Part shown: positions 6,926-7,877 of the stretch, in pieces | Layout of the letters: each line of letters begins with the position of its first letter | Position numbering within the stretch: position 1 is the stretch's first letter | NCBI RefSeq assembly: GCF_003334355.1 | Contig: NZ_QOWP01000011.1 | Strand: one strand, 5' to 3' | Source of the DNA: Escherichia coli | GTDB lineage: Bacteria > Pseudomonadota > Gammaproteobacteria > Enterobacterales > Enterobacteriaceae | Length of the DNA stretch: 64,000 bases | Position numbers and translations under genes: made by a program | The notes under the pieces: model-generated | Seen by the model: the letters and a program-made list of their open reading frames with translations, nothing else | Told to the model about the DNA's origin: nothing | The model's database searches: none

Positions 6926-6953
6926 ATCATATCAAATGACGCGCCGCTGTAAA
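6926..6953 (-). promoter_or_regulatory. tyrT sigma70 promoter (-35 TTTACA, -10 TATGAT, GC-rich discriminator)
   Basis: Minus-strand TTTACA at 6953-6948 and TATGAT at 6931-6926 with 16-bp spacer; GCGCCCCGCTTCCC discriminator; about 41 nt upstream of mature tRNA 5' end. Confidence 0.8.
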
Positions 6954-7034
6954 GTGTTACGTTGAGAAAAATGAACTGGTTGCGTAATTTTCATCCATAA
7001 CGGATTAAAGGTAACCAGTTATTTTTGCTGGCGA

Positions 7035-7877
7035 TTAAAGAATAATCGTCCGATTACCGTAAACAAAGACGCGCTGTGCCAGTACTTTGTATAGTGCACG
7101 ACTTAAGACGTTTTTCTCGACGTCACGACCTGCGCGCATCATATCTTCAGCTGTGTAGGTATGATCGACATGAATAACGTCCTGCATGATGATTGGGCCT
7201 TCGTCCAGATTGTCATTCACATAGTGAGCGGTTGCGCCAATAATCTTCACACCACGTTCATAGGCCTGGTGATAAGGACGTGCGCCAATAAACGCTGGCA
7301 GGAATGAATGGTGAATATTGATGATCTTATTCGGGAAGCGTGCCACAAATTCCGGCGTTAATACCCGCATATACTTCGCCAGCACCACGTAGTCAGGTTG
7401 ATAAGCATCAATGGCATCCGCCATCTTTTGATCGTGCTCGTTGCGGCTTAACCCTTCATGGCTTACCAGCTCAAACGGAATATCAAAACGCTCAACCAGA
7501 GAACGTAGAGTATCGTGGTTACCAATAACTGCCGCGATTTCGACATCCAGGCCGCCGTAATTGGCTTTCATCAACAAATCGCCAAGGCAATGCGCTTCTT
7601 TAGTGACCAGAATCACTATCCGGCGACGACCGGCAGGATTCAGCTCACGCACGGAGCCTTCTGGCAATGCGCTATCGAGATCCGCCAGCAGGGTGGAATC
7701 ATTAAAAATCCCTTCCAGTTCCGTGCGCATAAAAAAGCGCCCGGTACGGTGATCAACAAATTCATTGTTCTGTACGATATTTAACTCGTGCTTGTAGCAA
7801 ATATTGGTAATACGTGCGATCAGACCTTTTTGGTCCGGACAAATAGTACGCAGAACTTTACGTTGGAGTGAATGCAT
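7035..7877 (-). CDS. purU: formyltetrahydrofolate deformylase
   Basis: 280-aa ORF with N-terminal ACT-like region and formyltransferase core; recognised as PurU. Confidence 0.93.
   Translation of the reverse strand: MHSLQRKVLRTICPDQKGLIARITNICYKHELNIVQNNEFVDHRTGRFFMRTELEGIFNDSTLLADLDSALPEGSVRELNPAGRRRIVILVTKEAHCLGDLLMKANYGGLDVEIAAVIGNHDTLRSLVERFDIPFELVSHEGLSRNEHDQKMADAIDAYQPDYVVLAKYMRVLTPEFVARFPNKIINIHHSFLPAFIGARPYHQAYERGVKIIGATAHYVNDNLDEGPIIMQDVIHVDHTYTAEDMMRAGRDVEKNVLSRALYKVLAQRVFVYGNRTIIL

Follow-up and report, generated by a model that had tools for sequence, protein, structure and literature searches.

The FIS-dependent upstream activating region of tyrT covers the end of purU, whose read-through may end at a hairpin of the tyrT promoter

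Introduction

FIS-dependent upstream activating sequences (UASs) of stable-RNA promoters form a class to which tyrT, rrnB P1 and thrU-tufB belong. The literature describes the tyrT UAS as carrying three specific FIS sites in helical register, bound with Kd values of 7.5-60 nM, and the published sequence of the cloned tyrT UAS begins within purU. A 2024 preprint places one of the tyrT FIS sites inside the co-directional purU reading frame and draws a parallel with rrnB P1 and murI. Two further systems are of interest for the RNA made when a gene is read towards such a region. At secG-leuU, RNase P parts the mRNA from the tRNA, and the mRNA keeps the spacer before exonucleases act on it (Mohanty & Kushner 2007, PMC2241853). 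Moreover, hairpins without a U-tract are known to protect RNA 3' ends that exonucleases produce by trimming longer transcripts, whose own ends lay further downstream (Dar & Sorek 2018, PMC6061677).

Here we examine the region between purU and tyrT in Escherichia coli, which is the type example of the FIS-dependent class itself. We refer throughout to the window, by which we mean the whole stretch of 64,000 nucleotides analysed from contig NZ_QOWP01000011.1 (assembly GCF_003334355.1). The order of genes at the locus is narI on the plus strand, then, on the minus strand, three RtT elements, tyrV, a further RtT element, tyrT and purU, and then ychJ, rssA and rssB.

Results

The tyrT promoter downstream of purU

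The 280-aa open reading frame at 7035..7877 on the minus strand is formyltetrahydrofolate deformylase (purU) in all matching RefSeq E. coli records. Its stop codon is a TAA at 7037-7035 in the list of open reading frames, in agreement with the original prediction, which had purU ending at 7035. Further along the same strand lie two genes for tRNA-Tyr(GTA), namely tyrT at 6791-6875 (ARAGORN; Rfam RF00005) and tyrV at 6497-6581 (ARAGORN), together with four RtT elements, one between tyrT and tyrV (6616-6747) and three past tyrV (5961-6092, 6140-6271 and 6319-6450). The arrangement is general in the species: a 521-nt query covering tyrT and purU found a match in 5426 of 5426 complete E. coli genomes, and the match was always purU plus a tRNA-Tyr.

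A consensus scan of the minus strand recovered a promoter of the form TTTACA-16 nt-TATGAT with a TG motif (10/12), with the -35 hexamer TTTACA at 6948..6953 and the -10 hexamer TATGAT, preceded immediately by TG, at 6926..6931. This is the very site, 6953-6926, that had been proposed for tyrT. The same scan gave 4 hits over 1.6 kb as against 1.7 expected; we nevertheless take the tyrT match to be beyond chance, because CTTTACA is invariant, the motif was located in 79 of 80 loci from different species, and a spacing of 84 nt to the purU stop recurs in 57 of those 79 (see below). A GC-rich discriminator, GCGCCCC, follows TATGAT at a position 43 nt upstream of tRNA-Tyr, as is characteristic of stable-RNA sigma-70 promoters. 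Transcription is taken to start at the G at 6918, 8 nt past the -10 hexamer, in which case the purU stop codon occupies -119 to -117. Judged from its position relative to the -10 hexamer and the 5' end of the tRNA, the tyrT 5' leader, counted from this G, is 43 nt long (6876..6918, minus strand). The classical tyrT pre-tRNA leader begins pppG-CUUCCCGAUAAGGG, given as pppGCUUCCCGAUAAGGG. On the plus strand, a terminator-like hairpin at 6868-6882 (ACCCCACCACGGGGT, then the T-run AATGCTTTTT) lies antisense to the 5' end of tyrT and its leader, and could halt antisense transcription arriving from the nar side.

Counted from first base to first base, 84 nt separate the purU stop codon from the -35 hexamer downstream of it. 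The spacer between purU and tyrT, part of a stretch (6960-7040) described earlier as rich in A/T tracts, is 63% A+T, compared to 55% in the last 300 nt of purU.

The upstream activating region and its overlap with purU

Upstream of the promoter we read three 15-bp cores of the type G...C, given here in the purU sense: site I, GGATGAAAATTACGC, at 6982..6996 and centred at -71; site II, GGTTACCTTTAATCC, at 7002..7016 and centred at -91; and site III, GATTATTCTTTAATC, at 7033..7047 and centred at about -122. Site I agrees with GNNYRWWWWWYRNNC over its full length, and the centre of site II is a poor match to the degenerate FIS consensus. With the proximal core at -71 and spacings of 20 and 31 bp, the three are in helical register. 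The FIS site centres of tyrT were reportedly placed at -71, -91 and -122 by Lazarus and Travers in 1993, and we equate the three cores of the window with these centres, including the one at -122. Site III takes in the Thr277 wobble base, the three codons that follow (278-280), the stop codon of purU and 2 nt more.

It is close to certain, then, that 6926-7047 comprises the tyrT core promoter and its FIS-dependent UAS, with helically phased cores at -71, -91 and -122, the most distal of which lies over the last purU codons and the stop. The window resembles the class in its GC-rich discriminator, its proximal FIS core at -71 and its further cores in helical register. It differs from the type tyrT UAS in one respect, a near-private SNP at 6997, between sites I and II, where it carries A (purU-sense CCGTTATGG) against a G in K-12 and in most E. 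coli (CCGTTACGG). The SNP falls within a small palindrome between the two sites and turns a G-C pair into G.U. Of the 5426 complete genomes, only 1, that of strain 5735, which is of bovine origin, carries exactly the window's 81-nt spacer haplotype. Records typed as plasmid account for eleven of the matches to the 81-nt spacer among complete E. coli genomes; these may be plasmid-borne chromosomal segments or mis-assigned replicons.

Since this region is the tyrT FIS-dependent UAS itself, its overlap with the end of purU is already known and in print. The original prediction that any activating region must extend over the end of the purU coding sequence thus agrees with what the 2024 preprint states, and is backed by the comparative data that follow. 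The arrangement is like that of rrnB P1: the tyrT UAS reaches into the upstream coding sequence, and two upstream Fis sites of rrnB P1 lie inside the co-directional murI.

Conservation across the Enterobacteriaceae

The comparative set consists of purU loci from 80 species of Enterobacteriaceae, obtained by a scan of species-representative genomes; their purU proteins are 92-100% identical. In every locus with enough downstream sequence, tRNA-Tyr(GTA) directly follows purU on the same strand. The tyrT promoter motif was located in 79 of the 80 loci, the contig of the remaining one ending too early, and 57 of the 79 share a distance of exactly 84 nt from the purU stop to the -35 hexamer, the full range being 67 to 94 nt. 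The -35 hexamer is invariant in the 80 species and the -10 hexamer nearly so. Between the stop and the -35 hexamer, no column apart from CTTTACA is invariant except G-98, T-90, T-89, C-84, G-78, A-73, A-72 and C-64. The first four of these belong to site II and the last four to site I: they fall exactly on the G/C at +/-7 and on the central A/T of the cores at -91 and -71, a two-core pattern that eight invariant columns placed at random would give with P ~0.001. The comparative data confirm FIS sites I and II independently of any footprint. As for an UP element, an A/T-rich sequence at -40 to -60 that contacts the alpha C-terminal domain, its consensus is matched in part, and 90% or more of the species keep TTT at -52..-50, an A at -44 and AA at -40/-39.

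Site III leaves its own trace within the coding sequence. The codon for Thr277, whose wobble base is the outer G of the site, is ACG in 59 of 80 species, compared to 27% at the other Thr codons of purU, and the outer C, 2 nt past the stop, is retained in 66 of 80 species; these counts overstate independence because the species are related, though the direction is clear. Codon usage shows that FIS site III restricts the choice at a synonymous purU position, a clear case of a regulatory site limiting codon choice in an adjacent gene.

In nine of the 80 species purU and the tRNA are separated by some 180 nt more, all of it downstream of the promoter. Of the three such loci that were scanned, two proved to hold an RtT element (RF00391) as the extra sequence, Citrobacter amalonaticus (L005, 3515-3657) and Kosakonia pseudosacchari (L024, 3515-3660), and the third (L080) had no RtT at that position. 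The RtT element of C. amalonaticus and K. pseudosacchari lies past the tyrT promoter and ahead of the first tRNA-Tyr; the RtT elements of E. coli come only after the tRNAs.

An inverted repeat across FIS sites I and II

A scan for canonical terminators on the minus strand from 7035 to 6954 found no hairpin-plus-T-run, and an Rfam scan of 5700-8000 at E <= 1 gave only tRNA and RtT, with no family in the purU-tyrT spacer. An Rfam match to sX4 (E = 0.39; 19 bits against a threshold of 70 bits) was dismissed as chance. purU is without a dedicated canonical terminator before the tyrT promoter.

The spacer can nonetheless be folded. In the MFE structure of the minus-strand RNA, a 5' arm in the purU 3' tail (7013..7029; an A-tract plus AACUGGUU) forms a long-range helix with a 3' arm at 6965..6981 (AACCAGUU plus CAUUUUUCU), at -13.4 kcal/mol (z = -2.15), around a loop of ~31 nt that corresponds to FIS sites I-II. 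The T-run at 6971-6967 lies at tyrT -53..-49, where the distal UP-element subsite would be. The helix (7029-7013 / 6981-6965) and this U-run could act as a weak, non-canonical purU terminator within the tyrT UAS, with the DNA of FIS sites I-II serving as its loop and the UP-element position as its U-tract, and it would stop purU transcription in part, ~50 nt before the tyrT start. We regard such an embedded terminator as unlikely, and the comparative evidence on it is divided. Escherichia E69 and E. albertii have a stronger fold (-21.9 kcal/mol, z = -4.6), and the helix is kept in the MFE structure, with at least 7 long-range pairs, in 60 of 79 distinct species sequences. Across the alignment 80.9% of helix cells are paired, compared to 30-53% when the partners are slid. 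Double changes occur in 35 cells (23.3 +/- 3.6 in shuffles), and the covariation score is 0.238 (0.197 in shuffles). The 5' arm of a species pairs better with its own 3' arm than with those of other species (10.42 versus 10.06 of 13 pairs; permutation P = 0.00025), pairs possible only in the sense RNA (G.U) outnumber those possible only in the antisense (A.C) by 126 to 43, and the median z of the spacer fold is -2.14 in sense as against -1.29 in antisense (Wilcoxon p = 0.034). Furthermore, at least 5 T occur within the 8 nt past the stem in 42 of 79 species; the conserved T's also lie where an UP element would be expected.

Against this, pairing is still 78.3% when partners are shuffled within columns, and the gain of own over foreign arms comes to 0.36 of 13 pairs, so that most of the pairing is explained by conservation of the arms. 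Helix pair 34-70 is disrupted in 44 of 79 species, RNAalifold on the 80 species yielded zero consensus pairs, and in many genera the helix is closed at its base by G-C pairs located 3' of the U-run, an arrangement unlike that of a terminator. Within E. coli, the commonest haplotype (3619 records, exact) is a weak form of the helix, and the strong form of E69 and E. albertii had no exact match in RefSeq complete E. coli genomes. Separately, the idea that the complementarity of the arms is a by-product of palindromic FIS sites was rejected, as the axis of the repeat is at -79, the midpoint of sites I-II is at -81, and for the most part the arms fall outside the cores.

Compared to canonical intrinsic terminators, the helix shares the upstream A-tract, the stem and the downstream U-run, but its loop is ~31 nt instead of 3-8, its stem is AU-rich, the terminator scan makes no call on it, RNAalifold gives no consensus structure, and the lists for three growth conditions have no 3' end at 6965-6971 (see below). 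On loop size, listed 3' ends and consensus structure it falls outside the class of intrinsic terminators. We therefore treat it as a retained inverted repeat, for which a terminator role is possible as a candidate function.

A listed RNA 3' end just past the tyrT start

For mapped RNA 3' ends we turned to the Term-seq study of Adams et al. 2021, which provides curated lists for LB at OD 0.4, LB at OD 2.0 and M63 glucose at OD 0.4; the lists are thresholded, and a weak 3' end could be missed. None of the three conditions has a 3' end assigned to purU or an entry at the site of the helix and U-run (K-12 1287711-1287720), and the supplements of SMRT-Cappable-seq, TRS and TERMITe hold no purU, b1232 or tyrT entry and no coordinate match. 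Over 6960-7035, then, the searched tables list no 3' end that would mark a purU terminator, and the literature has established that FIS binds upstream of 6960, so that the original prediction of an activating region here stands on both points. It had also assumed a purU terminator and a stop to read-through ahead of the tRNA promoter, and this part is not borne out: the scan shows no canonical terminator, and the only listed 3' end downstream of purU is at tyrT +3, beyond the promoter.

That end is at position 6916 of the window on the minus strand (K-12 1287663), and is an 'orphan' entry in sheet M63 0.4 of Supplementary file 1 of Adams et al. 2021, with an average count of 43,047.9. The strings listed there are 61 nt long with the 3' end as the 51st base, and K-12 coordinates equal window coordinates plus 1280747, because on this conversion the hns entry lands in the terminator U-tract and the tRNA entries at CCA+2 and CCA+4. 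The entry occurs in the M63 sheet, is absent from both LB sheets, and is the sole listed end downstream of purU; it is a single table entry from one study and one condition, classed as orphan, with no tie to purU in the table. A second orphan end, K-12 1287359 (window 6612), ends CCACCACCAUCUC in the LB 0.4 and M63 sheets and lies a few nt downstream of the RtT element between tyrT and tyrV.

The core promoter itself contains an inverted repeat at 6921..6945 on the minus strand, which RNA folds place between the promoter spacer (GGCGCGTCAT) and the -10 hexamer plus discriminator (ATGATGCGCC). In a read-through RNA it would form a hairpin of 10 bp (GGCGCGUCAU / AUGAUGCGCC) with a predicted stability, flanks included, of -18.6 kcal/mol. 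The RNA terminus at 6916 reads ...UAUGAUGCGCCCCGCU-3' and falls 5 nt past this hairpin, with CCGCU as the tail; the hairpin has no U-tract, as in hairpin-protected ends. The hairpin is present in all species examined, at -9.5 to -24.5 kcal/mol, a conservation that is no proof of a role at the RNA level because the stem is built from functional spacer, -10 and discriminator. The promoter stem has been lengthened in different genera by variants of spacer and discriminator, GGGG with CCCC in some and GCGG with CCGC in others.

Because it ends 3 nt past the tyrT start and is yet long enough to be sequenced, the RNA must start upstream of the tyrT start. purU is its only known co-directional source. 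A small stable RNA, initiated at an unrecognised promoter in the 3' region of purU or in the spacer, would account for the same end. The count at 6916 is similar to that of the tyrT trailer end and about half that of the hns-region entry in the same sheet, more than would be expected of a weakly expressed mRNA. Within purU the scan gives a weak promoter-like match (7216..7189, minus strand, 9/12), and two hairpins predicted in the tail RNA would make a short fragment more stable. The scan, however, shows no promoter-like site besides tyrT between 7035 and 6954, no Rfam family covers the spacer, and a literature search for a spacer sRNA or an Hfq-bound fragment returned only purU as a target of GcvB. 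A separately initiated small RNA is improbable on this evidence, and stays a live alternative because the read count is surprisingly high for an end derived from purU.

Discussion

Our best overall explanation, to which we give a probability of roughly 55%, combines the known FIS-dependent UAS of tyrT with read-through from purU that ends at the promoter hairpin. The first part is not new: the overlap of the UAS with purU adds nothing to what is in print, and the termination of purU is a genuine but small gap. For the second part, that read-through from purU has a stable 3' end set by the promoter hairpin at 6916, we would put the chances a little short of even, on one public data point and sequence analysis; the geometry, the conservation, the lack of a canonical terminator and the existence of the 3' end are shown, and both the purU origin of the RNA and the route by which its end forms are inferred.

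RNA polymerase transcribing purU would enter the UAS and, at least in minimal medium, also cross the tyrT core promoter. The GC-rich hairpin formed by the promoter inverted repeat (6945-6921) would then set a stable, purU-derived end at 6916, by one of two routes. In the first, polymerase would halt soon past the hairpin. In the second, which seems more likely, the read-through RNA would be cut further downstream, possibly by RNase P at the 5' end of the tRNA as for secG-leuU, and 3' exonucleases would trim it back to the hairpin. Direct intrinsic termination is the less likely of the two because the tail CCGCU is short and U-poor. Taken together, the data suggest that read-through of purU is not stopped ahead of the tyrT promoter.

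A protein-based stop ahead of the promoter would predict the opposite, with FIS or RNA polymerase acting as a roadblock, or Rho acting on the untranslated tail, to leave heterogeneous and unstable ends. The three FIS sites and the wrapping of polymerase fill the whole spacer, the spacer tail has a C/G ratio of 1.73, and the lack of discrete upstream ends fits diffuse termination; nevertheless, the 81 nt of A/U-rich RNA (23% C) from stop to -35 are a short and poor loading site for Rho, the Adams supplements show no Rho termination region at these coordinates, and the literature examined contains no account of FIS blocking elongation. FIS and tyrT promoter occupancy are highest in rich medium. 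A +3 end found in M63 and not in LB would fit a block that is stronger in rich medium, but is equally explicable by the level of purU expression or the threshold of the table. We consider a stop of this kind very improbable. Within the preferred reading, in which purU transcripts run into the promoter and end at its hairpin, the absence of the 6916 end from the LB lists could likewise be due to a block by the FIS/polymerase complex when growth is fast, to weaker expression of purU or to the threshold of the lists. The purU mRNA is also under post-transcriptional control, since purU is a verified, conserved target of the GcvB sRNA via its R1 region (PMC9299463), and this may matter for its abundance in minimal medium.

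A broader proposal, which we hold to be doubtful, is that the spacer is dual-coded: as DNA it would be UAS and core promoter, and as RNA the 3' UTR of purU, in which the UAS-spanning helix would enclose the FIS I-II segment and the promoter hairpin would define and protect the purU end. If true, the 3' end of purU, and possibly the stability of its mRNA, would be tied to the growth-rate-dependent occupancy of the tyrT promoter, as the presence of the end in M63 and its absence in LB would have it. The question of read-through from purU is now testable, and it bears on how dense genomes handle transcription into very strong promoters.

For the answer proposed here, the closest analogues would be the co-transcription of secG-leuU and the exonuclease-trimmed, hairpin-protected ends. 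With secG-leuU the locus shares a protein gene followed by a tRNA gene on the same strand, with no terminator between them. The secG-leuU spacer is 14 nt long and has no internal promoter, whereas that of purU-tyrT measures 159 nt and holds one of the strongest promoters of the cell; unlike its counterpart, it could shield the upstream RNA with a stable hairpin, if purU and tyrT are co-transcribed as we suppose. Like the ends described by Dar & Sorek, the one at 6916 is precise and lies a few nt past a stable stem-loop without a U-tract, and it may have been trimmed in the same manner. It differs from them in that its hairpin is made of promoter elements and not of a dedicated 3'-UTR structure.
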